The notes beneath the pieces are model-generated. The model made no database searches. It was given only the letters and a program-made list of their open reading frames with translations, and was not told the origin of the DNA. The translations under genes and the position numbers were made by a program. A stretch of 63,218 nt of DNA, counting the filler, from Basidiobolus ranarum (Eukaryota): assembly GCA_040143965.1 (NCBI GenBank). It is 25 parts of 25 records of this genome, joined end to end, with 100 filler letters (N's around TTAATTAATTAA, not from the genome) between each part and the next. Parts side by side here need not be neighbours in the genome. Positions count along the whole stretch, not along the records: positions 38,060 to 40,489 come from JASJQH010003347.1; 24 more parts are not named here. One strand, 5' to 3'. Positions 1-60,697 of the stretch are shown here, piece after piece (position 1 is the stretch's first letter; every line of letters begins with the position of its first letter).

Positions 1-333
1 GAGCCTGTTGGAAGTGGTTTGGAGAATTAGAGGAATTGGTGGTTTTCACTTGTTGGTTTATTGAGTAGAAAGTTGACATTTATAGTTTTGTCAAGATGTA
101 AACAAACTAACATGTAGAATATGTCAAGGAAGGTCCCAGGAACATGTGTGCAAAGTTTGAGGCTTCTAGCACAAGTTTGAAAACTCTATATATCTGAGAA
201 CTTCTAAGTTGGTAAAAATATTCTAAGTAAATTCCAATTGAGAATAATTGATAATATCTTAGTGAATTATAAGGTAACTAAGTACTAAGCTATATATGGC
301 TATATAGATGTTTAGGCAATGCTAATTTCAACA
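1..333 (-). repeat. Copia family A LTR (LTR-A), nearly complete, inverted relative to 524-869
   Basis: Reverse complement of 524-869; ends ...GCTAATTTCAACA. Confidence 0.9.
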
Positions 334-523
334 GAAGTAAACATATAGATATTAAGCATCCCTTCATTAGAGACACTTTAGAGAATAAGTCTATTGACTT
401 AACTTGTTGTTCTACAGAAGACATGATTGCTGATGTATTAGCAAAAGCATTAGCTAGACAGATATTTGAGAAGTTCAGACCTTTATTGGGATTAGTTTAT
501 ATGACTATTTAGTAGAGGGAGAG
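334..523 (+). mobile_element. Copia-A pol C-terminus (RNase H) and polypurine tract
   Basis: Translates SKHIDIKHPFIRDTLENKSIDLTCCSTEDMIADVLAKAL; AGTAGAGGGAGAG lies directly before the LTR. Confidence 0.9.
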
Positions 524-869
524 TGTTGAAATTAGCTTTGCCTAAACACCGATATAGTCGTATATAGCTTAGTACTTAGCTATCTTATAATTCACTAAGA
601 TATTATCAATTCTTCTCAATTCAAATTTACCTATAGCATATTTACCAACTTAGAAGTTCTCAGATATACATATTTTTCAAACTTGTGCTAGAAGCCCCTA
701 ACTCTGCACACATGTTTCTGGGACCTTCCTTAACACATTCTACATGTTAGTGTGTTTACATCTTGACAAACCACCAATGTTAACTTTCTACTCAAAAATC
801 AATAAGGGAAAACCACAAATTTCTCTATTTCTCCAAGCCACTTCCAACAGCCTCCCAAATACTTTAACA
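524..869 (+). repeat. Copia-A 3' LTR (346 bp, TGTTGAA...TTTAACA)
   Basis: TG...CA ends with short terminal inverted repeat, follows a PPT, and has many other copies in the window. Confidence 0.92.
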
Positions 870-4314: not shown

Positions 4315-5089
4315 AGTTATGGTATGCAAGTTCAAAAGGAAATCCAGAGAATGCACTATGCTAGATATGTGGGCTTCATACAAACAACTTAGTCAAACAG
4401 ATATCATGGTTGATGAAGAAGAATTTATGAACATTTATATTTTATGAATCTCTACAATGAAATAAAACTTGGAAAGTTGATGCAAAAGATCAAGGTGACC
4501 AATTACACAAGTTAATATTAAAGCAATGTATTCTAGTTTTAGATGTGATCCCAATTCTGAGACATCAGTCCCTGCAGAGAAACTGTTGCTCACTATTGAC
4601 ATCAACAAACTCATTTAACCGGACTAGGGAAAACAACTCAGCATTGTGAGGAAAAAATCAATCAATATTTATACAGGCAAACATGCATACATCCTTCTAG
4701 CCAAAAGAATCATTATTCAAGATTTCTTCAAGGGCACCATTGATTGCATTTAGCAATATATTATGACATGCAACTTTAATAACAGTAAGGAATTATGTGG
4801 TACCAATCCTTTTGCCAACACCATGCAGCTCCCTTCTGAGAGACCTGTCTTCAGGAATATATTAATAGACCCACTGGATGAATATCAACCAGAACTAGAT
4901 AAAAAACTTTCAGAAATTTACCCTTCTCCATCAGAATCGTCTTTTTCATCCACTTACATCTTTGTCTCCTCTTTGATTTATGACATTNNNNNNNNNNNNN
5001 NNNNNNNNNNNNNNNNNNNNNNNNNNNNNNNTTAATTAATTAANNNNNNNNNNNNNNNNNNNNNNNNNNNNNNNNNNNNNNNNNNNNCT

Positions 5090-7529
5090 TTATATGATCT
5101 GCAATCTTGGCTTGGCTCTCCTTGCATGTATGTCTATGATTGTTCATCTGCTGGAAATATTTTGTTATCTTTCAATCGTTTTGCCAAACAACGCGATTCT
5201 GAAGCCGCTAAGCTTGGCCATGTGCCTTACACTCCTATGTCTGATTGCATACAATTAGCTGCTTGTGGCCCAAATGATATACTTCCCATGAACCCTGACT
5301 TGCCAGCTGATCTGTTTACCTGCTGTTTAACAACTCCTATTCAAATTGCTTTACAATGGTTTGTTTTACAAAATCCGTTGTTGAATAGCGTAGACGCAGA
5401 AATGATTTTGAAAACCCCCGGGAAACTAAGTGATCGTAGAACACCTTTGGGTGAGCTTAATTGGATTTTTACTGCGATTACGGATACTATTGCTTGGAGC
5501 GTACTTCCACACGATCTTTTTAAGAAATACTTTAGACAGGATATGATGGTAGCAGCAATGTTGAGAAACTTTTTACTAGCAGATCGAATTATGCGTTCTT
5601 ACAACTGTACTCCAATGTCAATGCCTCCACTGCCATCCACATGCCATCATCCACTTTGGAAATCTTGGGATTTCGCTGTTGATATGTGCCTATCTCAATT
5701 GCCAGCCTTATTGGCCATGGAGGAAGGTGGGCCTCCTGTTGAGTACAGTCCCAGCACATTATTCAACGAGCAGCTTACCGCATTCGAGATCTGGCTAACG
5801 CATGGATCTATCGCTAGAAATCCCCCAGAGCAATTACCTATTCTTCTTCAAGTTTTACTAAGTCAAGGCCATCGTCTTCGAGCATTAATTCTTTTATGTA
5901 AGTTTTTGGATCTTGGCCCCTGGGCAGTTGATCTAGCGCTTGCTGTTGGCATCTTCCCATACGTCCTGAAGCTTCTTCAAAGTCCCGCGGCTGATTTGAA
6001 GCCACTCCTTGTATTCATTTGGGCAAGAATTCTGGCAGTCGATTCATCATGCCAAAGCGACCTTCTTAAAGATGATGGATATAATTACTTTGTGCATGTT
6101 TTAGCTATTGAAAATGACCCATCACCCATTCCAAATATTTCAGAGCACCGTGCTATGTGTACATTTATTCTGAGTGTTCTTTGCAACGATTTTCTTCCTG
6201 GGAAGGAGGCATGCCTTCGAAGCAACGTTCTCACCCTTTGCTTGGTCCATCTGTCCGATGAAGATCCATTGTTGAGACAGTGGTCATGTTTATGTATTGG
6301 TCAGCAATGGGCGGGTTTTGCTGATGCCAAATGGCTCGGTGTACGTGAAAATGCTCATGAAAAACTCTGCGCTCTGCTATCAGACCCAGTTCCTGAAGTT
6401 AGGTCAGCCGCTATATACGCTCTCGGTCTCTTTATTGGGGACTTGGATAAGACCGAACAGGTTGTGAATATTGAGCATAATATCGCCATAGCAATGTTGG
6501 TTGCAACCAACGATGGTTCACCAATGGTTCGTCGTGAATTGGTTGTAGCACTTTCCAGTGTTGTTCACGGATATATAAGCATAATCCTTCAGATTGCCTA
6601 TGAACTGGTTGAAGAAGACAGGAAGCAGTCATCTCAAACTATTGATGAGCGAGTATTGCAACGCGGTCGTTCGGATCGAAGAAGCATCTCTGAACAAATG
6701 TTCCGTTCCGTTAGCCATAACTCTGCTTATACTTGTGTTTGGAAAGCTCTACTCAACCTATCTGTCGATCCTCATAATGACGTCTCTTCATATGCGGTCA
6801 AGGTTGTGGATTATGTACATTACCAACTCATCAACTCCTCAATGTCCGAAGCCGCAGCCTCTTCTCTCTTGCATCTACCTCCGCCCACTGGCCCAGGGAT
6901 TTCTGGCCTTGGGAATGGTCATACTTCTTCTATAACTGGGCTAGAAAACTCTTCTAACGGATTGCAATCTAACGGAAACCAACGGTTAACATCGAAAATT
7001 ACCTCCACCTTAAAACGCTCTGCCTCATTTTCGTTAAAAGCATTGGGGTACATGGCCGGTACGACTAATGAGACATCCTCAAACTCGAATCCAATCGATG
7101 CCAACTGCAATAGTCAAGTGAGACGTTCATTTACTAATAGGAATGAATCCTTCACACAATTAAATGAAATTGGTCAAGAGGGTGAAGATGGAGTTATTTC
7201 TAAAGCCAGCGATCCTTACGAAAGAATTACCCTTCCTCTTCATTCCGATTTTTACAATTGGTGTCGAGAATACTTTGCTGAACCTCAGATGCGTCCAGCT
7301 GAAGCAGATGAACCGGGAAGTACGAACTATAATGAACGTTTATGGCGCAGAACGCGAAATGAAAAAGTAATCTTTGAAAGCCATCCACTAAGTGAGCATG
7401 CAGGAACCAGTAAATGGGAAACTCCCTTGGGAACGATGTATACCGACTCTCAACCAACCTCTCTACTATTTCATCAATTCGAGAATCATCTTGTTGTTTC
7501 GGATAGTATAGGTGCGAGTGGTGTATGGG
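5090..7529 (+). CDS. KOG1: Raptor / TORC1 subunit Kog1 (Mip1), internal fragment, no introns in this span
   Basis: RNC-domain motifs YVYDCS, LPADLFTCCLTTPI, DRRTPLGELNWIFTAITDTIAW, PPEQLPILLQVLLSQGHRLRAL, then HEAT repeats and the start of WD40. The frame is open from the contig edge. Confidence 0.97.
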
Positions 7530-7629: not shown

Positions 7630-8939
7630 AAAAATTGCCATCTATTACTGGAAATATTTTTGTAAATCCCCTGATGAGGCATCCATGATGCGGTCTTAGA
7701 ATCAGCTGATGATATTGATGGGCAATACCTAAAATGCCACTCTTATATTGGAGGTGTTCTTTTCTTCTCAATATCCATCTCATACCACAACACAAACATA
7801 TAAAGAAACCCTGCTATTATTTGCTGCCAATTCTTCTGCTGAGGATGCCATAGTCTAGACGAAAAATAATTGCAAGTACAGTCACTGTACAAAGCCACCA
7901 GCTGCACAAAGCCTGGTGAATATCAGCAGTAAAAAGTGCACAAAATCAACTTCAGTTTTGCCCATGGTGTCCACTGATTATACTTTGTCTCACAGTTTTG
8001 ATAACACTGCTACTTGTCAAGATATCATGGAGTTACCACAGTTATATGACCAGATTTATGTAGATAGAAATGTAAATTTGGTCAAACCATTAAGTCCGGA
8101 CAACTTTGAAGACATGCTGCTAAATGTTGACCTTGGTTATTCCAGTATTGATGGTGGTATATCCAAAGCTGAAGAAGAAGGTGATGGTTTTGTTAGGGAC
8201 TCTTTGTTATTGGCAAGCATTAGTCCACTCATAACACTCACTGTAAAGGAAGCAGCTTTGATTATTAAGGAGTGGAGAGTTCAATCCAATCTTAGCAACC
8301 AGGTGTTTATTGGTTTTCTGGCACTTTTATCTTGTTTGATTGGCAACTGTTGCTTGCCACAGACCTGGTACAAGTGGAAAACACTTGTCAAACATATGAC
8401 TTATAATCCTTTAGTAATTGAACTACATTCATGTCTAAATGGTTGTTTGGCTTTCACCAGTATTCTCAAAACCTGAAGTAACAACCTGAAGTCAGGTACT
8501 ATTTGCACACAATTGGCAATCACTGAATCAGGTATATATTGTTCATATTGGGCTTACACATAGTTGATTCCCCATCTTAAAGTTTTGATGAAATAACCCA
8601 AATATAGATCATTGATCCAATACCAAAGTACTCACCATAAAGCTAATGGTATTATTGATGTACTTAATGGATATCACTACCAGAATCTGAAAAGTCAAGG
8701 GTTTTTTGAGAACACATATGATAATGCATTTGCATTGGCTCTGGATGGTTTCTCACTAAACAAATATACTGTTGGAAAGGCTTGCTGGTCAAAAATTTAA
8801 TTAACATAAATCTTCCTGCCTCTGAACAATACAAGAGTCATACTATTTGATATTATCCATCACTTCTGGAACTAAATCACCAGTGCTTATAGATAGCTTC
8901 TTGGAGCCTTTGATTGCAGAATTTGAGTGGTTATCTAAT
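7630..8939 (+). mobile_element. CMC/EnSpm transposon: intergenic spacer and 5' half of Tnp2-family transposase (ORF1), degenerate
   Basis: IELHSCLNGCLAF, DVLNGYHYQNLKSQGFFEN, ALALDGF, NLPASEQYK and IDSFLEPLIAE motifs; interrupted at 8940 by a second copy. Confidence 0.85.
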
Positions 8940-12814: not shown

Positions 12815-13860
12815 ATCCTGCTCCTTGAGCAGTTCTGTCTTTACTTTTTTTTCTTTCCAAGTCAATAATGGCATACATTTTTGAGATGTCTCATGAATAC
12901 ACCTATACCAGCCCAATTGTCATTTGCTAGCAAAAACCCAGCATAAGCCACATGAAATAAGTCAAGAACCTTTAGAGTAACACCTGGTTTTTGGTTTTTC
13001 CACAATTGCCTCAAATCCAGGTGAATTTGGGCAAGATTCTTCACAGTTTCCAAAATGTTGAACTACTCATCAACAGAGCAAGTGACAGCAGCTCTGACAT
13101 TTAGAAATGCTTGGATTGCCAGCTTTCCTATGATATGTCTAATTTCATGTGCCCAAGGAATTATGGGTTGTTGTGTAAACTTAATGCTCCAACACATATT
13201 CTGCTCTGCCAGATTGTCATGGTGACTCTCATATATGGTGCAGCATTGATTAGATTCCCATACAACCATAGACAGAGGGTGCCGCATGTTGCAGTAGCTC
13301 AAGTACAGCATTCTGAAAATCTGATATCATTGTTGAGTGATTCTCTAACTGTTGACTAATTGCTTCCAAACGCAGCATTAATTTCAATATTGTGTAATTA
13401 TTGCTTGTCATGGCCTATATGGCAACTTGGTAGTTTTTGCTAATGATGGCATACAAATCATTATGATGTTGTGGCTGCAATTACCTTGTTGTCATAATGC
13501 TATCCGAATCTCCTACAGAAAGTTGCTCAATAGTTGGCAAAGTAACCATTTTGGAAGTTAATGGTCTTGATGGTGTTTCTGTTGAACTTTGCTCAACTGT
13601 TCATTTACTACATAATTGGGTGATTAAAATCCCTTCACTTGCATTATCATTACAAAGGAACACATATGGTAAATTGATCAATGCTTCATCATTACTTGAG
13701 TTAGTTTCTGGCCAGCGAATGCCTTCCAAAATGGAAGTGGATTGCTAGACTGCTCATCAATTAAGTCCTCTGTTCTTGCTGGTTTCTTTCCTTTCATGCC
13801 AGCAGGCTTTCACTAGGAAGCCAACTTTCATTTTGATTTTAAATGCTTTTTGAATGACAT
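12815..13860 (-). mobile_element. CMC transposon accessory ORF2, 5' part, degenerate
   Basis: Starts ATGTCATTCAAAAAGCAT; homologous to 50806-51630 and 56928-57207; contains LKVLDLFHVAYAGFLLANDNWAGIGVFMRHLKN. Confidence 0.75.
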
Positions 13861-14069
13861 TGAAATTTTCAGATGCTAAACTTAGTGTAGTGAAATTGCT
13901 TAGAAACAGCTTATAATAAACCAAAATTGCCATTCATTACTGAAAATAACTTGAAAATCCCCTGATAACTCATCTGTGACACTGTCTCAGAATTAGCTGA
14001 TAATATTAATGTGCTATACCTAATACACCACCCTTACATTGCATGTATTCTTTTTCCTATAATATCCTA

Positions 14070-15052
14070 CTCACGCTATAATCCAAATACTTAAAGAAGC
14101 CCTGCTATTATTGTCACAAATTCATGTGCTATGAAGCCAGAGAATTTACAAAAAACAATCACCAGCTTGGTCACTGTACAAAGCCACCAGCTGCACAAAA
14201 CCAGGTGAATATCAATGGTAATAAGTGCACAAAATTGACTTTAGATTTGCCCACTGAGTCCACTGCCCATGCTTTGCCTCAAAGTTTTGGTATTGCAGCC
14301 AAAAGCCAAGATACTGCAGAGTTAACACATTTGTATGACCAGAATGATATAGGTAGAAATGCAACCTTGGTCAAACTAGTAAGTCCAGACAACTTTAAGG
14401 ACATGATGTCAGATGTTGACCTTGGCTATTCCAGAACTGATGGTAGTATATCAAAAGTTGAAGACAAGGACAATGGTTTTGTTATAGACCCTTTGTTAGT
14501 GGCAAGCATTAGTCCACTCATAACACTTACAGTAAAAGAAGTAGCTTTGATTATCAAGGAGTGGAGAGTTCAATCCAATCTTAGCAACATGGTGTTTATT
14601 GGTTTTCTTTCATTTTTATTACAGTTTATTGGTAAACTGTTGCCTGCCACAGACCTCACTCAAGTGGAAAACACTTGCAAATAGTAAGACTTATAATCTT
14701 TGAGTAGTTAAACTACCTTCAAGTCCAAATGGTTGTTGGCTTTCACCAGTGATCTCAAAAACATGAAGTCAAGCATTGTTTGCACACAATTGGCAATCAC
14801 TGCATGAGGTAAATATCATTTGTATTTGGCTTCCATATGATTGATTCCCATCTTAAAGTTTTGATGAAAACACCCAAATATACATTATTGATCCAACACC
14901 CAAGTACTCACTGTAAAGCTGTTGGGATTACCAATATGTTTTATGAATATCACTACCAGAATCTTAAAAGTCAAGGTTTCTTTGAGAACACACATAATCA
15001 TGAATCTGCATTGGTGCTGGATGGTTTCTCACTTAACAAACACACTGTTTGA
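14070..15052 (+). mobile_element. CMC transposase ORF1, 5' part, degenerate
   Basis: KKPCYYCHKFMC, SISPLITLTVKE, YQNLKSQGFFEN and LVLDGF motifs. Confidence 0.85.
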
Positions 15053-37959: not shown

Positions 37960-39952
37960 NNNNNNNNNNNNNNNNNNNNNNNNNNNNNNNNNNNNNNNNN
38001 NNNTTAATTAATTAANNNNNNNNNNNNNNNNNNNNNNNNNNNNNNNNNNNNNNNNNNNNATTGGGATACATTGGTGTTGATACCGGCTTGCTATTCTCCA
38101 TGTTGAAGCAGTTTAGGATATGTAGGATGTATTTAGACTGATTCAGCATAATTTCCTGATTGGGTTCATCTCTCTTGATTTGGATTCCAAGAAAATAACT
38201 TTATTCACCCATATCAGTCATCTGAAATTGGTTTGATCAGCTGCTTTTTGTCTTATTAAGAGCTTCTAGATCATTAGGGGCTGTGATTAAGTCATCCACA
38301 TATAGTGCCAAGATAAGCATCCTATTTCCGGTTTTTTTGATGTAAATACTGTGATCTGCTGTGCATTTTTGGAATTCCAGAGATTCCAAATAGGTGTCTG
38401 TCTTGTTGTACCATGCTCTGGGCACTTGCTTGAGTCCATAGAGTGATTTTTACAGTTTACAGACCATATCAGGATGTAATGGGTCAACAGATCCATCTGG
38501 TTGCTTTGTATAGATCTCTTCTTCTAGATTTCCAGTCAGAAAGGCTGCTTTAAGACCCATTTGATGCAGATCAAGGTTATGGATGGCTGAGAGTGCCAGG
38601 GTTGATCTAATGGAGCTAAACTTAGCTACTGGAGAAATGGTTTCATTGAAATCAACTCCTGGAGTCTGGGAATAGCCCTTTGCAACTAATCTTGCTTTGT
38701 ACCTTTGCGGGGTTCCATCAGCTTGGTTTTTGACTTTGTAGACTCATTTGCAACCTATTGGCTTTCTTCCGAATGAAAGAGGACTTAAAACCCATGTTTT
38801 ATTGTCCTGAAGTGAAGAATACTCCTCTGATCATGCTTTTTCCCATAAATTTGAATCTGGACACTCCAGAGCTTGATCTAGAGTCTGTGGCTTGTCACAG
38901 AAGGCTGCATAAGCATATACATCATTGTTGGAGGTGTTGCACCAGTTTCCTGGCTTATTTCTCCTTCTGGATGATCATCTGGGACATGAATCATCCTTTG
39001 ATGTAATTCAGACTGAAATTTTGGTTGAATAGGGCTCAGATATAGCTGGAACTTTATCAGACACTTCCTGAATAGTGCTGATTGTGTTTTCTGGATCAAG
39101 AACAGTAATTTGAGGTGAAAAATTTGCTTTTTGATCAAAAATCACATCTCTGCACTTGATTAACTTCTGATTTTTGGTATCAAACAGTCTGTAGGCCTTG
39201 AATCCATCACAGTAGCCAGCAAATATGCATTTTCTGCCTTTCGGTTCCAATTTTGAGTGTTTTTGAGCAGGAATTAGGCAATATGCTGGGCAACCAAAGA
39301 TCCTGAGATGATCCACGCTTGGTTTTGATCTATACAGGGCTTCAAATTGAGTAGAAATTTGTAGCAATCTTGTTGGGCATCTGTTTTTGATATAGACTGC
39401 AGTGAAGACAAATTCCGGCCAATATTGGTAATCTAACTTTTGATCATGTAATATTGATCTTGCCATCTCCACTATGATCCAATTAGCACATTCTGCAACT
39501 CTATTTTGCTGTGGAGTATAAAGTACAGTAGCTTGTTGCTTAATTCCATGTTTAGAGTCAGAACTAGCAAAGTCTTTAGAGCAGCATTCTCCACCATTAT
39601 CACTCCTTAGTACCCTTATTTTTTGTGCTGCTTCTTTCTCTACCATTGCTTTGAGTGCTTGAACATAACTAAAGCTTCAGATTTAGATTAAGAAAGAACA
39701 CCCATGTATATGTTGTTTCGTCATCAATAAAGTCCATAAAGTTCCTTTTCCCACACAGTGAGACATATTCATGTGCCCACATAGGTCAGAATGAAGCAGG
39801 GAAATATTCTGAGTAGATTTAATCTCTCTAGAGCTTGAAAACAGCTTTCTGTGCTGTTTTCCATATATGCAACCTTCACACAGATCCAATTTAGTGCTAT
39901 TTCCAATTTCCAAGCCTGAAACAAGCTGATTTTGGATCATTTGGGTCAGTTT

Positions 39953-40234
39953 TGTTGAAATTATTTAGGGAGAAATATTGGTCTGGCCAGGAATTGAACC
40001 TGGGACCTCCTTCACTCTAGCAAGATGCTCTAACCACTGAGCTACCAGTCCTTGTATGCTATGGCTCTATTGCTAGGGAACCTTAACCTAGTCTGTCAAT
40101 GTATGGTACTTTGGCATTTCAGCTTTACAAGCAACTGATTGGCCATAGACTTTGTGTTCAGATGCAGTCACCATACTCAATATTTTCCTCTTTGAGAATT
40201 ACTGCTTGTACCACAAGTCACCAGACTTTGAACA
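39953..40234 (-). mobile_element. Solo LTR-C (282 bp) containing a tRNA-like cassette; TSD AGTTT
   Basis: TGTTGAAA...TTTGAACA flanked by AGTTT (39948-39952, 40235-40239); second copy at 51892-52173. Confidence 0.88.
39979..40051 (-). ncRNA. tRNA-like sequence within LTR-C (probably not a translational tRNA)
   Basis: GGACTGG TA GCTC AGTGGTTA GAGC A TCTTG CTAGAGT GAAGG AGGTC CCAGG TTCAATT CCTGG CCAGACC A: cloverleaf with A and B boxes and an imperfect anticodon arm. Confidence 0.8.
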
Positions 40235-40638
40235 AGTTTTTGCTTCCCAATATGTCCTAGTCTTCTATGACATGTTTGACAATGTATTTCACCAGCTTTA
40301 GCCAAGTTCGCATGCTCAGAATGCAATTTGGTGATTTCTAGCTTGTATAAGTTTTTAATTTTGAGCCAAGTAGCGAATTTGGTATTATTCTGATCGGTGA
40401 TAGTTATCCAGCCTTAGTGAACAAGAAATTTAGTCCTTGAGCAGTTGCTTGGCTTACTGAGAGTAGATTCTTGGCTACATTTGGTACATNNNNNNNNNNN
40501 NNNNNNNNNNNNNNNNNNNNNNNNNNNNNNNNNTTAATTAATTAANNNNNNNNNNNNNNNNNNNNNNNNNNNNNNNNNNNNNNNNNNNNTTTAACTTTTA
40601 ATCTTGCCTTTTGTCTAATCTATTACTCTCATACAAAG

Positions 40639-47869: not shown

Positions 47870-48072
47870 TGTTGATATTGGCATTGCTAAGCACCTATAT
47901 AGTCATATATGTTGAAATTAGCATTGCCTAAACACCTATATAGTCATATATAACTTAGTAATTAGTTATCTTATAACTCACTAAGATATTATCAATTATT
48001 CTCAATCGGAATTTACTTAGAATATTTTTACCAACTTAGAAGTTCTCAGATATATAGATTTTTCAAACTTGT
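47870..48072 (+). repeat. LTR-A start with a second LTR-A start about 40 bp later
   Basis: TGTTGATATTGGCATTGC... followed by TGTTGAAATTAGCATTGCC. Confidence 0.8.
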
Positions 48073-48201
48073 NNNNNNNNNNNNNNNNNNNNNNNNNNNN
48101 NNNNNNNNNNNNNNNNTTAATTAATTAANNNNNNNNNNNNNNNNNNNNNNNNNNNNNNNNNNNNNNNNNNNNAATTGTGGCTAATTAGGTAGGCTACCAG
48201 A

Positions 48202-48273
48202 GCCTGCTTAGCACAGTGGCAGTGCATCTGTCTTGTAAACTGAAGGTTGCCAGCTCAATCCCAGTAGTAGGTG
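48202..48273 (+). pseudogene. tRNA-Thr(UGU) pseudogene
   Basis: GCCTGCT TA GCAC AGTGGCA GTGC A TCTGT CTTGTAA ACTGA AGGTT GCCAG CTCAATC CCAGT AGTAGGT G, then TTTTT; damaged T-loop and stems. Confidence 0.75.
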
Positions 48274-48580
48274 AGTTTTTAAACAACCATTAGAATTGGT
48301 AAATCATTTGATATTCTGGAGTTTAATGAGTATAAACAAATTAAATCTATTCCTATTTTTACTACTATCAAACTATTGAATCTTTAAATTAATTTCCTGG
48401 AATTAGCATATCTCATGTTTACATTTACCAGATTTGATCATTGTGTTACATTTATTGTTTAGTTTACATTTGTACTTCTGATCACACCTAATAATTGAAA
48501 GTTAGTTTGATACATATTGTTGAGTAAACATTGAATCTGTTTTGTAACTTCCATTTCATGGCTATAAAATACAGATGTTA

Positions 48581-49217
48581 CTTTTAAAGTATTTGGGAGC
48601 CTGTTGGAAGTGGCTTGGAGAATTAGAGGAATTGGTGGCTTTCACTTGTTGACTTATTGAGTAGAAAGTTGACATTTATAGTTTTGTCAAGATGTAAGCA
48701 AATTAACCTGTAGAATGCGTTAAGGGAGGTCCCAGGAGCTGTTGAAATTAGCATTGCCTAAACCCCTATACAGTCATATAGAGCTTAGTACTTAGTTATC
48801 TTATAATTCACTAAGATATTATCCAATATTCTCAATTGCAACTTGGAATATTTTTACCAACATAGAAGTTCTCAGATATGTAGATTTTCAAGCTTGTGCT
48901 AAAAGCCCCAAGCTTTGCACACATGTTCCTAGGACCTTTTTTAACACATTCTACATGTTAGCTTGTTTACATCTTGACAAAGCTACAAATGTCAACTTTC
49001 TACTCAATAAATCAACAAGTGAAAACCACCAATTTCTCTAATTTTCCAAACCACTTCCAACAGGCTCCCAAATGTTAAAAGTAGCATTGCCTAAACACCT
49101 ATATAGACATATACAGCTTAGTACTTAGTTATCTTATAATTCACTAAGATATTATCCATTATTCTTGATTGGAATTTACTTCAAATATTTTTACCAACTT
49201 AGAAGTTCTCAGATATA
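48581..49217. repeat. Three nested LTR-A copies (48581-48739 minus, 48740-49072 plus, 49073-49217 plus)
   Basis: Each matches 524-869 or its reverse complement. Confidence 0.85.
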
Positions 49218-50134: not shown

Positions 50135-50599
50135 TGTTAAGGTATTTGAGAGCCTGTTGGAAGTGGTTTTGAGAAATAGAGAAATTGGTGGTTTTCACTT
50201 ATAGATTTGGTGAGTAGAAAGTTGACATTTTTAATTTTCTCAAGATGTAAACAAACTAATATGTAAAATATGTTAAGGAAGGTCCCAGGAACATGTGTGC
50301 AAAGTTTGGGGCTTCTAGCACAAGTTTGAAAAATCTGTATATCTGAGAACATCTAAGTTGGTAAAAATATTTCAAGTAAATTCCAATTGAGAATAGTAGA
50401 TAATATCTTAGTGAGCTATAAGATAACTAAGTACCAAGTTACATATGACTATATAGGTGTTTAGGCAATGCTAATTTCAACACTCTCCCTCAACTAAATA
50501 ATCATATACGCTAATCCTAATAAACGTCTAAATTTCTCAAATTTCTGGCTAGCTAATGGTTTGATTAATATATCAGCAATCATGTCATCTGTAGAACAA
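50135..50599 (-). mobile_element. Copia-A 3' end (RNase H, PPT, LTR-A 50135-50482) inserted in Copia-B gag
   Basis: DDMIADILIKPLA on the minus strand; PPT reads CTCTCCCTCAACT on the plus strand. Confidence 0.88.
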
Positions 50600-51891
50600 N
50601 NNNNNNNNNNNNNNNNNNNNNNNNNNNNNNNNNNNNNNNNNNNTTAATTAATTAANNNNNNNNNNNNNNNNNNNNNNNNNNNNNNNNNNNNNNNNNNNNC
50701 ATCTTAACTCTGAGTTACGACCTGGCTTAGTCGCCTTTGCCTCTCAAATTAACCCAAAACGTAATACAAGTCGGTAGGGAATAAAGGGTATGGTTCGGTG
50801 TAAGCCGTGATGCCTGGTTTTTGATTTTTCCATGATTGGCTCAAATCCAGGTGTTTTTGGTATGATTTTGCATAGTTTGCAAAATGTTAAACCATTGATC
50901 ATCAGAGCAAGTGAAGATAGCTCTGACATTCACAGTCTTATAGTTTGCCAGTTTTCCTATGACATTTCTACCTTCATGTGCCCAAGCAATTTGATGTTGT
51001 TGTGTATACTGAATCATCAACACATATTCTGCTCTGCTAGATTGCCACAGTGATGTTCATATATATGGTGTGGATTGATTGAAATACCATATGAGAATGG
51101 ACAGAGGGAGCAGCATGTAGCTGTAGCTCAAGTAGAGCATTCTGAAGGTCTTGTATTATTGTTGAGTGACTCTCTAACTATTGACTAGTTGCTTCCAAAT
51201 GCTGCATTAATTGCTATATTGTGGCATTTTTACTTGTCATGGCCTGCATAGCAACTTCACAGTTTTTATTGATGATTGCATACAAATCATTGCAGTGTAT
51301 TGCCTGCAATTCCCTTGCAGTAACAAATCTATCCAAATTTTCTGCCAAGGGCTGTTCAATAGTGGGCAAAGTAGCCATTTTGGAAGTTGATGGGCTTCAC
51401 AGTGTTTTAGTAGAACTTTACAAGGAATACATCTGGTAGATTGATTAATGCTTCATCATTAATTGAGTTAGTTATTGGCATATTAAGACCCTCCAAAGTG
51501 GATAGCAGATTGCTAGACTGCTCATCAAATAAGTCCTCTGTACTTGCGGGTTTTTTTCCTTTTGTGCCAGTGGGTTTTGGCTCGGCAGCTGATTTTGACT
51601 TAGTTTTTGAATGCTTTTTGAATGGCATTGAAATCAACAGATGGAAAACTTGGTGTCAAGAAATTGGTTTGAAACAGCTTATAATAAACCAAAATTACCA
51701 TCTATTACTGGAATCATCTTGTAAATCCCCTGAAGACTCATCTGTGACACTTTCTTAGAATTAGCTGATGCTGTTGATGGGCTATACCTAAACTACCTCA
51801 CTTTAATAGGGGGTGTTCTTTTTTCACACTATCATTCTCATGCTACATCACAAATGTTCAAAGAAGCTCTGCTTTATTGTCACAAATTCTT

Positions 51892-52173
51892 TATTGAAAT
51901 TATTTAGGGAGATATATTGGTCTGGCCAGGATTTGAACCTGGGACCTCCTTCACTCTAGCAAGGTGCTCTAACCACTGAGCTCCTAGTCCTTGTATGCTA
52001 TGTCTATGCTGCTGGGGAACCTTAACCTATTCTCTCAATGTATGGTACTTTGGCATTTAAGTAATACAAGCAAATGATTGGCCTTTAACTTTGTGCTCAG
52101 ATGCACTCACCATACTCCATATTTTCCTCTCTGGGAATTACTGCTTGTACCACAAGTCTCCAGACTTTCAACA
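51892..52173 (-). mobile_element. Solo LTR-C (282 bp) containing a tRNA-like cassette; TSD TTCTT
   Basis: TATTGAAA...TTTCAACA flanked by TTCTT (51887-51891, 52174-52178); absent from the other CMC copies at this site. Confidence 0.88.
51918..51990 (-). ncRNA. tRNA-like sequence within LTR-C
   Basis: GGACTAG GA GCTC AGTGGTTA GAGC A CCTTG CTAGAGT GAAGG AGGTC CCAGG TTCAAAT CCTGG CCAGACC A. Confidence 0.8.
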
Positions 52174-53232
52174 TTCTTGTGCTCTGAAAGCCAAGGGCTT
52201 CATAGAAAAAATAATCACAAGCACAGTCACTGTGCTAAGCCACCGGCTGCACAAAGCTTGGTGAATATCAATGGTAATAAGTTCACAAAATTGACTTTAG
52301 TTTTGCCCACTGAGTTCACTGACTGTAGTTTGCTCTTAAATTTTGTTAACACTGCCAAAAGTCAAGATGCCATGGATTTACCACAGTTTTGTGACCAGAA
52401 TGATGTAGATAGAAATGCAACTTTGATTAAACCAGTAAGTCTAGATAATTCTGATGACATGCTGCCAGTCCGTGACCTTGGCCACTCCAGTACTGATGGT
52501 AGTATATCAGAAGTTGAAGAAGAAGAAAACCCTTGTGCTATAGACTCTTTGTGATTGGCAAGCATTAGTCCCCTCACAACACTTACTGTAAAGGAAGCAG
52601 CTTTGATTATTGAGGAGTGGAGAGTTCAATCCAAATATTGCAACCAGGTGTTCATTGGTTTTCTTACACTTTTACCACAGTTGATTGGCTATAGTTGCTT
52701 GCCACAGACCTGGTACTAGTGGAAAATACTTGTCAATTGTATGACTTATATTCCTTCAGTAATCAAACTACCTTCATGTCCAAATTGTGGTTTGGCTTTC
52801 ACCGGAAATCTGAAAAACCTGAGGTCATGTACTGTTTGCACACAATTGGCAATCACTTAGTCAGGTAAATAATGTTCATAATTGGCTTATAAACCATTGA
52901 TTTCCTGTCTCAAAGTATTGATGAAATCACCCAAATATAGATCTTTCATCCAATTCAAAGGTACTCATCATAAAGCTGATGGGAATACCTATATACTTGA
53001 TGTACATCACTACCTGAATCTGAAAAGTCAAGGTTTCTTTGAGAACACCTATGATCATACACATGCATTGGCTCTGGATGGTTTCTTGCTAAACAAATAT
53101 ACTGTTTGAAAGGCTTACTGGCCAANNNNNNNNNNNNNNNNNNNNNNNNNNNNNNNNNNNNNNNNNNNNTTAATTAATTAANNNNNNNNNNNNNNNNNNN
53201 NNNNNNNNNNNNNNNNNNNNNNNNNGGATTAG

Positions 53233-55750: not shown

Positions 55751-57207
55751 TTAGTGAGAGACCATCCAGAGCCAATGCAAATGCATGATCATATGTGTTC
55801 TCAAAGAAACCTTAACTTTTCAGATTCTGGTAGTGATGTCCATCAAGTATATTGGTAATACAATAAGCTTTACAGTGAGTACTTTGGTAATAGTTTGCTA
55901 ATCTATATTTGTGTGATTGGTCACATTTTTAAGATGGGGAATCAATGGCACACAATCTAAAAATGAGTATTATTTATCTGATTCACTGATTGCCAATTGT
56001 GTGCAAACAGTACATGACTTCAGGTTTTTCAGATCACTGGTGAAAGCCAAATCATCATTTAGACATGCAGGTAGTTTAATGACTGAATGGTTATGAGTCA
56101 TACAATTGAGAAATGTTTTCCACTTGTATCAGGTCTGTAGCAAGCATCAGTTGCCACTCAAATAGGGTAAAAGTGTCATAAAACCTATAAGCACCTATTT
56201 GCTAAGATTGGATAGAACTCTCCACTCCTCAATAATCAAAGATGTTTCCTTTACTGTAATTGTTATCCGTGGACTAATTTTTGCCATTAACAAAGAGTCT
56301 ATAACAAAACTGTCATCCTTTTCTTTAACTTCTGATATACTACCATCAGTACTGGAATAAACAAGGTCAACATCTAGCAGGATGTCCTCAAAGTTGTCTG
56401 GACTTTCTGGTTTGACCAAAGTTGCATTTCTATCTATATCATTATGGTAATAAAACTGTGTTAACTCCACAGTATCTTAACTTTTGGCAGTGTTACCCAA
56501 ACTTTGAGGTAAAGCACAGCCAGTGATCTCAGTGGGCAAAACTAAAGTCAATTTTGTGCACTTAGTACTGTTCAGATTCATCTGGTTTTGTGCAGCTGGT
56601 GGTATTGTACAGTTACTGTGCTTGTAATTATTTTTTCTATGAAGCCTCTGGCTTTCCCGGCACAAGAATTTATGACAATAATAGCAGGGCTTCTTTAAAT
56701 CTTTGTGTTGCAGCATGAGAAGAATATTGTAGAAAAAATAACCCCTCCTATATAAGGGTGGTATTTTAAGTGTAGCCTTGCACTATCATCAGCTGATTCT
56801 GAGATGGTGTCACAGATGAGTCATTAGGGGATTTACAAAATATTTCCGGTAATGGATTGTAATTTAGGTATAATATAAGCTGTTTCTAAGTAATATCACT
56901 ACATCAAGTTAACCATCTTAAAATTTCAATGCCATTCAAAAAGCATTCAAAATCAAAATCAAAATTGGCTTCCAGGTAAAGCCTGCAGGCACATAAGGAA
57001 AAAAAACAAGCAAGAGTGGAGGACTTCATTGATGAGCAGTCTGGCAATCAACTATTCACTTTGGAAGGTATTGACATGCCAGAAACTAACTCAAGTAATG
57101 AGAAAGCATTGATCACTTTGCCAGTAGTGTTCCATTCTAGCAATAGGGCAAGTGAAGAGATTGTAATCCCCCAATTACACAGTAAGTCAATAGTTGAGCA
57201 AAGTTCA
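55751..57207. mobile_element. CMC internal region in reverse: ORF1 5' part (minus, to ~56716) and ORF2 start (plus, ~56928)
   Basis: MLQHKDLKKPCYYCHKFLCRESQRLH on the minus strand; ATGCCATTCAAAAAGCAT on the plus strand. Confidence 0.85.
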
Positions 57208-58274: not shown

Positions 58275-58882
58275 CGCCTCCAAAATTAGGAAAGGCTTCC
58301 TGAAGCTATGGGTATCTTTGCCAATCTCTCCACTGCCTTCCATCCCCAAACTGATGGCCAAACAGAAAGAGTCAACCAAGTTTTGGAACAATATTTGTGG
58401 TGCACTATTAACTATAATCAAGATAATGTTGCCCTAAATAATTTCAATAGATATTTGGACACAACTCTGGCCTCTTGCTGAATTTGCTTACAACAACTCT
58501 TATCATACCTCAACAAAACAGACCCTATCTTTGCAAATTATGGACTCCATCCTTGTTGCACAATTCACCCACCATCCAATCTACCTTGTCCTGCTGCCTC
58601 AGATCATGCCACTTTCCTTAAGGACATCTGTAAACAATTGATATCCAGGTTGGAGCATGCTTAATCCCAATACAAGAATGTTGTTGATAAGAAAAGAAAG
58701 CCAAACCCAGATCTCAAGCCAGGATATTATAAATGGCTAATCTGTAAAAATACCAAGACCACTAGATCTTGTGACAAACTTTATCATAAAAGACTAGGGC
58801 TTTTTACAATTGTTAAGCAAATCAATTCAGTTGCCTTCCACCTTGCAATCCCAGACCATTTCATAGTTCACAATGTATTCCA
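58275..58882 (+). mobile_element. Gypsy integrase fragment, degenerate
   Basis: [24 protein letters not shown]; colinear with 17787-18333. Confidence 0.9.
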
Positions 58883-59709: not shown

Positions 59710-60697
59710 CTAAGGAATTTGGATCATAGCATCGCGACTGGCACCCACACCGATCCATTCTACTTTCGTACCAAGGAAGTTTTCGATGAACTTCACATAT
59801 TTTTGGGCATCAACTGGAAGTTCTTCGAACTTACGACACTTAGATATGTCAGATTCCCACCCAGGTAAGCTTTCATATTGTACTTCTACTTCTCCAAGTA
59901 CCTTCAAGTCAGCTGGGAACGATTCAAGAACCTTCCCATTAAGTTTATAGGCCGTAGCGACTTGGATTTTAGGGAATGTATCCAAGACATCCAGTTTAGT
60001 GATGTTGATACTAGAATACCCGTTAATAAGGTGGGAGTATTTTAGAACTACGAGATCCAACCATCCGCAGCGTCTCTTTCGACCGGTGGTAACGCCAACT
60101 TCAGCCCCAATAGTTTGTAATCGCTCACCATCAGCATCATGGAGCTCCGTGGGGAAAGGACCACCACCAACACGTGTGGTGTATGCCTTTACAACTCCAA
60201 TAACCTTTCCAATTCTGGTGGGTGGGATACCTAGACCTGTGCAGACGCCAGCAACACCGGTATTAGAGGAGGTAACGTAAGGGTAGGTACCAAAGTCAAT
60301 ATCAAGCATAATAGCGTTAGCTCCTTCTACCAATATTCTCTTATTGTCGTTAAGAGCTTTATGAATGAAGGAGACACCGTCAACTACAAACGGTTTGATT
60401 TTTTGCGCTAATTGCCTGTATCTTATGAGTTCAGCATCGACGTCGTAATCAAAGACACCGTAACGTTTGTGCTTCTTTTCTACCAGACTTCGGAATTTCG
60501 AGCTAAACTCTTCTTCGTCAAAAAGATGATGAACTCGGATACCATCACGGTTGGCTTTGGAAGAGTAAGCTGGTCCAATACCCTTCTTAGTAGAACCAAT
60601 ACTGCCTCGTCCTAACTCTTGCTCCTTAAGACAATCGCCGATTTGATGAAGGTCCAAGACGATATGAGCACTGTCAGAGACAAAAACTCGGCGATCA
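59710..60697 (-). CDS. ADE12: Adenylosuccinate synthetase, 3' part
   Basis: [64 protein letters not shown] and TKLDVLD motifs. Confidence 0.98.

Follow-up and report, generated by a model that had tools for sequence, protein, structure and literature searches.

A 282-bp LTR-like unit carrying a tRNA-like segment in a Basidiobolus-like fungus: two insertions and their likeness to Helenus-type elements

Results

The locus and its surroundings

A Copia pol open reading frame on the minus strand is interrupted by a 282-bp LTR-like unit (copy 1), inside which lies a 73-nt tRNA-like segment. A second copy of the unit (copy 2) is inserted in a repeat of another kind. The window, by which we mean the whole stretch of DNA analyzed (63,218 bases), is composed of 25 pieces sorted by length from 2,444 down to 2,421 nt and separated about every 2.5 kb by 100-base linkers consisting of 44 N, TTAATTAATTAA and another 44 N (2445-2544, 4988-5087, etc.). 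It is a chain of separate, small and unplaced contigs, and thus distance and order across a linker have no meaning. Copy 1 is located in the piece 38060-40489 and copy 2 in the piece 50700-53125, so that the 11.9-kb spacing between them says nothing on LTR pairing. The reading of the two copies as one LTR pair 11.9 kb apart was rejected because they belong to different contigs and each has its own target-site duplication.

Two other pieces of the window contain recognizable host genes. A fragment of the adenylosuccinate synthetase gene at 59710-60696 (-) encodes a product with 88% identity to a protein of Basidiobolus meristosporus and 87% identity to a B. ranarum protein, the next-best matches being at about 70%. 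The piece 5088-7529 is wholly open in one frame at 5090-7528 (+) and encodes 813 residues of Raptor/Kog1 (TORC1 subunit), for which the top matches, at 54-57% identity, come from early-diverging fungi. Both genes thus point to a Basidiobolus-like host and not to a rust.

Two copies of the 282-bp unit

The copies and the duplications that flank them are listed below; none of these features is assigned to a strand.

39948-39952, target-site duplication AGTTT, copy 1, left (sequence read)
39953-40234, copy 1, LTR-like 282-bp unit (TG..CA ends; flanked by the halves of a split Pfam gag_pre-integrs domain)
40235-40239, target-site duplication AGTTT, copy 1, right (sequence read)
51887-51891, target-site duplication TTCTT, copy 2, left (sequence and empty-site alignment)
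51892-52173, copy 2 of the 282-bp unit (TA..CA ends; without a match in three paralogous empty sites)
52174-52178, target-site duplication TTCTT, copy 2, right (sequence and empty-site alignment)

In copy 1, the terminal TG is at 39953-4 and the terminal CA at 40233-4, and the terminal inverted repeat, TGTTGAAA versus TGTTCAAA, matches at 7/8 positions. The preliminary description of this locus had reported a 282-bp unit with TG...CA ends, inverted repeats and an AGTTT duplication, and its coordinates proved to be exact on re-reading. Copy 2 is identical to copy 1 at 254 of the 282 positions, with 28 differences and no indels, and the flanks of the two copies are unrelated. BLAST detected no third match to the unit within the 63-kb window, and neither of the two copies (0/2) is a full-length element with paired LTRs, a PBS, a PPT and an internal region. 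No internal direct repeats were found inside the unit, which is hence no miniature element with two LTRs of its own. Inspection by eye, with no statistics attached, revealed no TATA-like or AATAAA motif common to both copies on either strand.

Searches for copies outside the window yielded 0 matches both in two scans of viral contigs, whose queries were 31 nt from the tRNA part and 24 nt from the LTR body, and in two scans of metagenome contigs with stretches of 21 and 20 nt. An 18-nt exact match to the unit start at 58432-58449 (-), considered as a lead to an autonomous partner, was treated as a chance match; it falls inside a Gypsy-type integrase frame. The region that holds it, 58290-58641 (+), is a frameshifted fragment of a Gypsy-type integrase adjoining the adenylosuccinate synthetase gene.

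Both copies are discrete insertions

Copies 1 and 2 are proven to be discrete insertions with exact ends and a 5-bp duplication. For copy 1, the proof comes from the coding frame that it disrupts.

40235-40413, minus strand, upstream half of the Copia pol ORF that copy 1 splits (...HRRLGHIGKQKL); ORF 40177-40413 (-), Pfam gag_pre-integrs positions 1-39
39008-39952, minus strand, Copia pol ORF as it resumes downstream of copy 1 (TQMIQNQLVSGL...); ORFs 39683-39964 (-) and 39008-39676 (-)

The downstream part resumes the gag_pre-integrs domain at Pfam positions 38-67 and continues with rve (integrase core) and SH3_retrovirus; RVT_2 is found further downstream, at 38450-38743 (-) (Pfam). Removal of copy 1 together with one AGTTT restores the ORF.

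For copy 2, the same is evident from the repeat that hosts it. Three paralogs of this repeat are present in the window, with flanks that are contiguous without the unit and with the 5-bp target occurring once.

14084-14160, plus strand, empty-site paralog of the copy 2 host repeat, with the target present once, as TTCAT (BLAST joins both copy 2 flanks; alignment)
56630-56706, minus strand, empty-site paralog with TTCTT present once (the matches to the two flanks share exactly 5 nt, 56664-56668; alignment)
7790-7862, plus strand, third and more diverged empty-site paralog (BLAST; alignment)

The empty sites read ...AATTCTT directly followed by GTGC..., with AATTCAT in one of the three. Three empty sites for copy 2 and a split Pfam domain for copy 1 thus provide two independent checks of the ends and of the duplication. 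As for the host repeat itself, its four copies (51492-52573; 13725-14515; 56271-57065 (-); 7631-8226) are about 80% alike, and its open frames of 158-205 aa have no match to any Pfam family above threshold.

The tRNA-like segment

Both copies contain a tRNA-like segment at the same place in the unit.

39979-40051, minus strand, tRNA-like segment of copy 1, 73 nt, anticodon AGA (ARAGORN; Rfam RF00005, 55.3 bits, E 3.4e-09, full model 1-71)
40034-40044, minus strand, A box TAGCTCAGTGG of copy 1, tRNA positions 8-18 (sequence read)
39990-40000, minus strand, B box GGTTCAATTCC of copy 1, tRNA positions 52-62 (sequence read)
51918-51990, minus strand, tRNA-like segment of copy 2 (ARAGORN; Rfam, 48.3 bits, E 2.9e-07)

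ARAGORN and Rfam agree with the earlier assignment of a 73-nt cloverleaf with an A box and a B-box-like T arm to the minus strand of copy 1. The A and B boxes are canonical; the consensus of the Pol III A box is TRGCNNAGTGG. The boxes of copy 2 are GAGCTCAGTGG (A, with the first base changed) and GGTTCAAATCC (B). The segment had been proposed to be a family-wide feature, and it does lie inside the repeated unit in 2/2 copies. In its own orientation, it occupies unit positions 184-256 of 282 and is preceded by 183 nt. In copy 1, 26 nt separate its end from the unit end with no T4 run between them, which bears out the description of a 26-nt spacer without a run of four T.

LTRs with a tRNA-like sequence are known from the TRIM class Helenus (Kojima, 2024, Biology 13:119, PMC10886601), in which TRGCY and YGG of box A and GGTTC of box B are conserved (PMC10886601, section 3.5). 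The combination of box A (TRGCY..YGG) and box B (GGTTC) that characterizes Helenus was found here, with tRNA homology in 2/2 copies.

Two further features were considered as signs of Pol III use and rejected, as neither is significant. The first is extra conservation of the tRNA part, which differs between the copies at 4/73 positions compared with 24/209 in the rest of the unit; this divergence is lower, but not significantly so (Fisher p = 0.175). The second is terminator avoidance: T4 runs are absent from the tRNA-sense strand of the whole unit in both copies, which is not significant, as 37-45% of shuffles also lack T4; 16% of the 282-nt segments of the window are T4-free.

The tRNA-like segment does not encode a working tRNA. 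The anticodon AGA would specify serine, and serine tRNAs carry a long variable arm; the variable region of the segment is 5 nt. In copy 1, two pairs of the cloverleaf are non-standard (3:70 and 31:39); in copy 2, three are. The minimum-energy fold differs from the cloverleaf, whose stability does not exceed that of shuffles (z -0.30 and -0.15). Thus, neither the long variable arm nor the stable intact cloverleaf of a functional tRNA-Ser gene is present, and it is the missing arm, the stem mismatches and the lack of any fold advantage over shuffles that set the segment apart from a working tRNA.

The tRNA homology with its A and B boxes would be accounted for if the unit were a tRNA-derived SINE, or else a true tRNA gene that is dispersed along with conserved flanks. 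However, 183 nt of the unit precede the tRNA part in its own orientation, which is thus not at the head, an A-rich or simple-repeat tail is absent, and both copies have exact ends and a fixed 5-bp duplication. For a true tRNA gene, the AGA anticodon is combined with the wrong variable region (5 nt), two or three stem mismatches and a fold no better than shuffles. We therefore regard this explanation as scarcely credible. A SINE in particular is excluded by the lack of a tail, the fixed length, the fixed duplication and the position of the tRNA part away from the head; of the features of SINE2 elements, we found neither the 5' tRNA head, nor a LINE-like or A-rich tail, nor variable duplications. 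The view of the unit as made by an integrase and not as a SINE, already expressed in the preliminary description, is upheld by its fixed 282 bp, the missing tail and the exact 5-bp duplications seen against the empty sites.

The module is also distinct from 5S rRNA: with E values up to 1 allowed, the window gave no 5S match, and Rfam gives only tRNA for the module. A plus-strand Rfam match to 'Plastid-ycf2' (27.6 bits versus a gathering threshold of 65.7, E 0.16) is the complement of the tRNA-like segment and was treated as spurious.

A third, unrelated tRNA-like segment is present at 48202-48273 (+), at the very start of its contig (Rfam 42.5 bits). It has a degenerate T arm and an anticodon loop CUUGUAA and is followed by TTTTT; it could be a pseudo-tRNA or the head of a SINE. 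As a source SINE for the module of the 282-bp unit it was rejected, since it is single-copy in the window and has only loose similarity.

The resident Copia family and the shared termini

The window contains a resident Copia-type family, for which the following features were identified.

336-523, plus strand, resident Copia-type element, 3' end of the pol ORF (336-512) and polypurine tract (511-523, AGTAGAGGGAGAG) (translation; candidate autonomous partner)
524-869, plus strand, resident Copia 3' LTR, 346 bp, TGTTGAAATTAGC...ACTTTAACA (termini resemble those of the tRNA-bearing unit)
50135-50482, minus strand, second resident 3' LTR, with a matching pol end and PPT (whole arrangement 50135-50599)

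The C-terminus of the resident pol has 57% identity to a 379-aa protein with RVT_2 (Copia-type reverse transcriptase domain); its best score in the ESM Atlas was 0.75, which is uninformative. Rfam found no tRNA match in the resident LTR 524-869. At least eight full or partial copies of this LTR family are present in the window (1-869; 47910-49217; 50135-50599). Two of the LTRs are arranged head-to-head (1-333 and 524-869); elsewhere, an inverted partial copy at 48584-48735 lies beside 48740-49073, which is abutted by a partial LTR at 49073-49217.

The resident Copia LTR, which directly follows a pol end and PPT, has the same 11 nucleotides, TGTTGAAATTA, at its U3 start as the 282-bp unit has at its plus-strand start. 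BLAST located this 11-mer at five other sites in the window, all of them at the 5' end of resident Copia LTR copies. The other end of the unit, ACTTTGAACA, resembles ACTTTAACA of the resident LTR. Away from the termini, similarity between the unit and the resident LTR is not above that of shuffles in either orientation. The stretch TTATTTAGGGAGAA at 39961-39974 (+), inside the unit start, resembles TATTTAGTAGAGGGAGAG (504-523 (+)), which comprises the Copia stop codon and PPT, and also resembles the reverse complement of the Copia LTR 3' end; it is short and purine-rich, and the resemblance may reflect homology or chance.

Taken together, the shared termini, the TG..CA ends and the 5-bp duplication fit insertion by the resident or a related Copia integrase, and the simplest view of the units is as solo LTRs. 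An alternative is that the unit is a complete non-autonomous DNA transposon (MITE-like) and not an LTR, with a tRNA-derived piece acquired by chance. The short terminal inverted repeat (7/8), the fixed length, the exact 5-bp duplications and the occurrence of both copies alone are all compatible with such an element. Nevertheless, the inverted repeat is just 8 nt long, and the TG..CA ends along with the 11-nt identity to the post-PPT start of the Copia LTR point to an integrase of retroviral type. To our knowledge, few cut-and-paste superfamilies produce 5-bp duplications (Transib does), and these have different ends. We consider a MITE-like origin very improbable.

The termini also bear on the polarity of the unit. 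If the plus strand of the window is sense, and the tRNA part is accordingly antisense, the termini agree with those of the Copia LTR at 11/11 and 9/10 positions. If the minus strand is sense, and the tRNA part with it, the agreement is 8/11 and 17/20 columns. Because both LTR families have inverted ends, the unit termini match the Copia LTR in both polarities. As judged from these alignments, the two polarities appear to fit about equally well, the plus-strand reading being slightly favoured if anything.

A rival explanation is that the unit is a solo LTR of a Copia-type element driven by Pol II, either autonomous or a larger non-autonomous one, and that the tRNA or SINE fragment is a passenger. 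The fragment would then lie near the U3 edge, possibly in antisense, and play no role in the retrotransposition template; at most, it would give rise to antisense or outward Pol III transcripts, or bind TFIIIC. The plus-strand match of the unit start to the Copia U3 start (11/11) and of the unit end to the U5 end (9/10) would imply this polarity, with the tRNA antisense, but the inverted termini fit the other polarity nearly as well (17/20 columns at the U5 end). The tRNA part has no significant extra conservation, and the avoidance of terminators is not significant either; on the other hand, the segment of copy 1, which is homologous to tRNA over the full length and has perfect A and B boxes, has the look of a used promoter, and the TATA-like or AATAAA motifs common to both copies that might be sought in a Pol II-driven LTR were not seen by eye. 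Published data can be read in both directions: tRNA-like pieces occur in 'not a few' of the LTRs in Repbase, and TRIMs are only some of these LTRs (PMC10886601, section 3.1), yet for Helenus itself the tRNA part is taken to be the promoter (PMC10886601). On balance, we hold the passenger explanation, the main rival to the one proposed below, to be possible but fairly unlikely.

Discussion

Relation to known elements

The preliminary description had named two analogues, Cassandra, which has 5S in the LTR, and the tRNA-bearing Helenus, and both are indeed described in the same study (PMC10886601). According to it, a whole Helenus element is about 0.3-1.3 kb long and consists of two LTRs and a short non-coding internal part with a PBS and a PPT. 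Fungal Helenus elements make 5-bp duplications, are tied to Copia and use PBS types also found in Copia elements; in some cases, all that survives of them are solo LTRs flanked by 5-bp duplications (PMC10886601). Elements of this kind were thus already described in 2024, and fungal families that make 5-bp duplications and leave solo LTRs were among them.

The 282-bp unit resembles Helenus in several respects. A tRNA-like segment with A and B boxes lies inside the LTR, which has TG..CA ends (TA..CA in copy 2). The duplications, AGTTT and TTCTT, are of 5 bp, as in fungal Helenus, and fall within the 4-6 bp expected of the class. The LTR length of 282 bp is within the published range (120-323 bp are mentioned). 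Apparent survival as solo LTRs is shared as well, and so may be the link to a Copia-type partner. The pseudo-isotype provides another parallel. In several rust genomes, the predicted tRNA-Ser-AGA genes are mostly Helenus copies (PMC10886601), and here AGA likewise appears on a non-serine body.

Two differences can be noted. First, the host is a Basidiobolus-like early-diverging fungus, in which the unit is known from solo copies alone, whereas fungal Helenus has been described from Pucciniales and a few Agaricomycetes, with Basidiobolus and its relatives missing from the list of hosts (PMC10886601, Table 1). Among titles and openings of abstracts, a literature search found no report of Helenus-type elements in the Basidiobolus lineage; a 2026 paper on sugar beet, in the parts of it that were available, just cites Helenus. 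[quoted passage not shown]

Other known systems are more distant. Cassandra is a plant element with 5S rRNA in its LTR, for which Pol III transcripts were validated according to the discussion in PMC10886601. What the unit shares with Cassandra and Ajax is that each LTR includes a fragment of a small-RNA gene, from which a non-coding LTR element could be transcribed by Pol III; with Ajax it also shares the 5-bp duplications. In contrast to both, the module is derived from tRNA and not from 5S (Rfam), and a 5S-derived promoter (box A, IE, box C) was not found; unlike Cassandra with its validated transcripts, the unit is known from sequence. Solo LTRs of Ty1/Copia elements have similar TGTTG...CAACA-type ends and 5-bp duplications and likewise nest in other Copia elements, but an ordinary Copia LTR carries a Pol II promoter and lacks a complete tRNA-like cloverleaf. 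With SINE2 elements, the unit has in common a putative tRNA-derived internal Pol III promoter, but it bears the signature of an integrase (fixed 5-bp duplication, TG..CA ends, no tail) and not that of target-primed reverse transcription. Under the published model of the origin of Helenus (PMC10886601, section 4.2), the module would nonetheless be likely to stem from a SINE.

Most likely, the family is a Helenus-type TRIM (the 'TRIMp3' class), to which it is likened by anatomy and not by consensus sequence. The Basidiobolus-like fungus is probably a new host lineage for elements of this kind.

Proposed mechanism

We infer that the 282-bp units are solo LTRs, and that the element to which they belonged was of TRIM size and had the orientation and the use of Pol III outlined here. 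The following scenario would then link the observations. An element with a tRNA-derived segment in its LTR would be short and non-coding, and would be mobilised in trans by the resident Copia family whose LTR termini it imitates. Insertion by an integrase of the Ty1/Copia type would create the 5-bp target duplications, and subsequent LTR-LTR recombination would leave the solo 282-bp units. An internal Pol III promoter would be provided by the A and B boxes of the tRNA-derived segment. With the minus strand as sense, unit positions 1-183 would be U3, and positions 184-282 (73 nt of tRNA-like sequence plus 26 nt) would be R and U5 together. Pol III transcription, initiated at the tRNA +1 of the 5' LTR, would pass through the 26 nt without T4 into the PBS and the body of the element; the tRNA part, read again in the 3' LTR, would provide the terminal repeat for strand transfer. 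This chain as a whole, from solo LTRs of a Helenus-type element through mobilisation by Copia to tRNA boxes acting as an internal Pol III promoter, seems to us somewhat more probable than improbable.

A bolder variant is that a Pol III LTR element arose independently in this early-diverging fungus (Basidiobolus-like, Zoopagomycota), a lineage remote from the rusts and mushrooms that host the known fungal Helenus, with R and U5 approximating a tRNA or, more unusually, with the tRNA in antisense. Under an independent origin, the design would be an extreme one: the tRNA module would stand at the very end of the LTR, with R and U5 (99 nt) being essentially the tRNA itself. In the antisense version, the tRNA would be at the U3 edge by the PPT, and the 3' LTR would fire Pol III transcription antisense through the body; if this is true, the element would possess a built-in antisense RNA instead of a template promoter. 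We find this variant, in either version, rather unlikely and mention it as a tentative suggestion.

Implications

For genome annotation, copies of this kind inflate the predictions of tRNA genes; ARAGORN calls both copies tRNA-Ser, and they should be masked when Basidiobolus-like genomes are annotated. The likeness of the unit termini to those of the resident Copia LTR, in turn, offers a concrete parasite-host pair for studying trans-mobilisation. If full-length copies confirm the assignment of the 282-bp unit to Helenus-type TRIMs, the distribution of these elements would extend to early-diverging fungi. If true, this would also support the published idea that LTR elements with Pol III promoters recur wherever a tRNA-derived SINE enters the LTR of a TRIM (PMC10886601).
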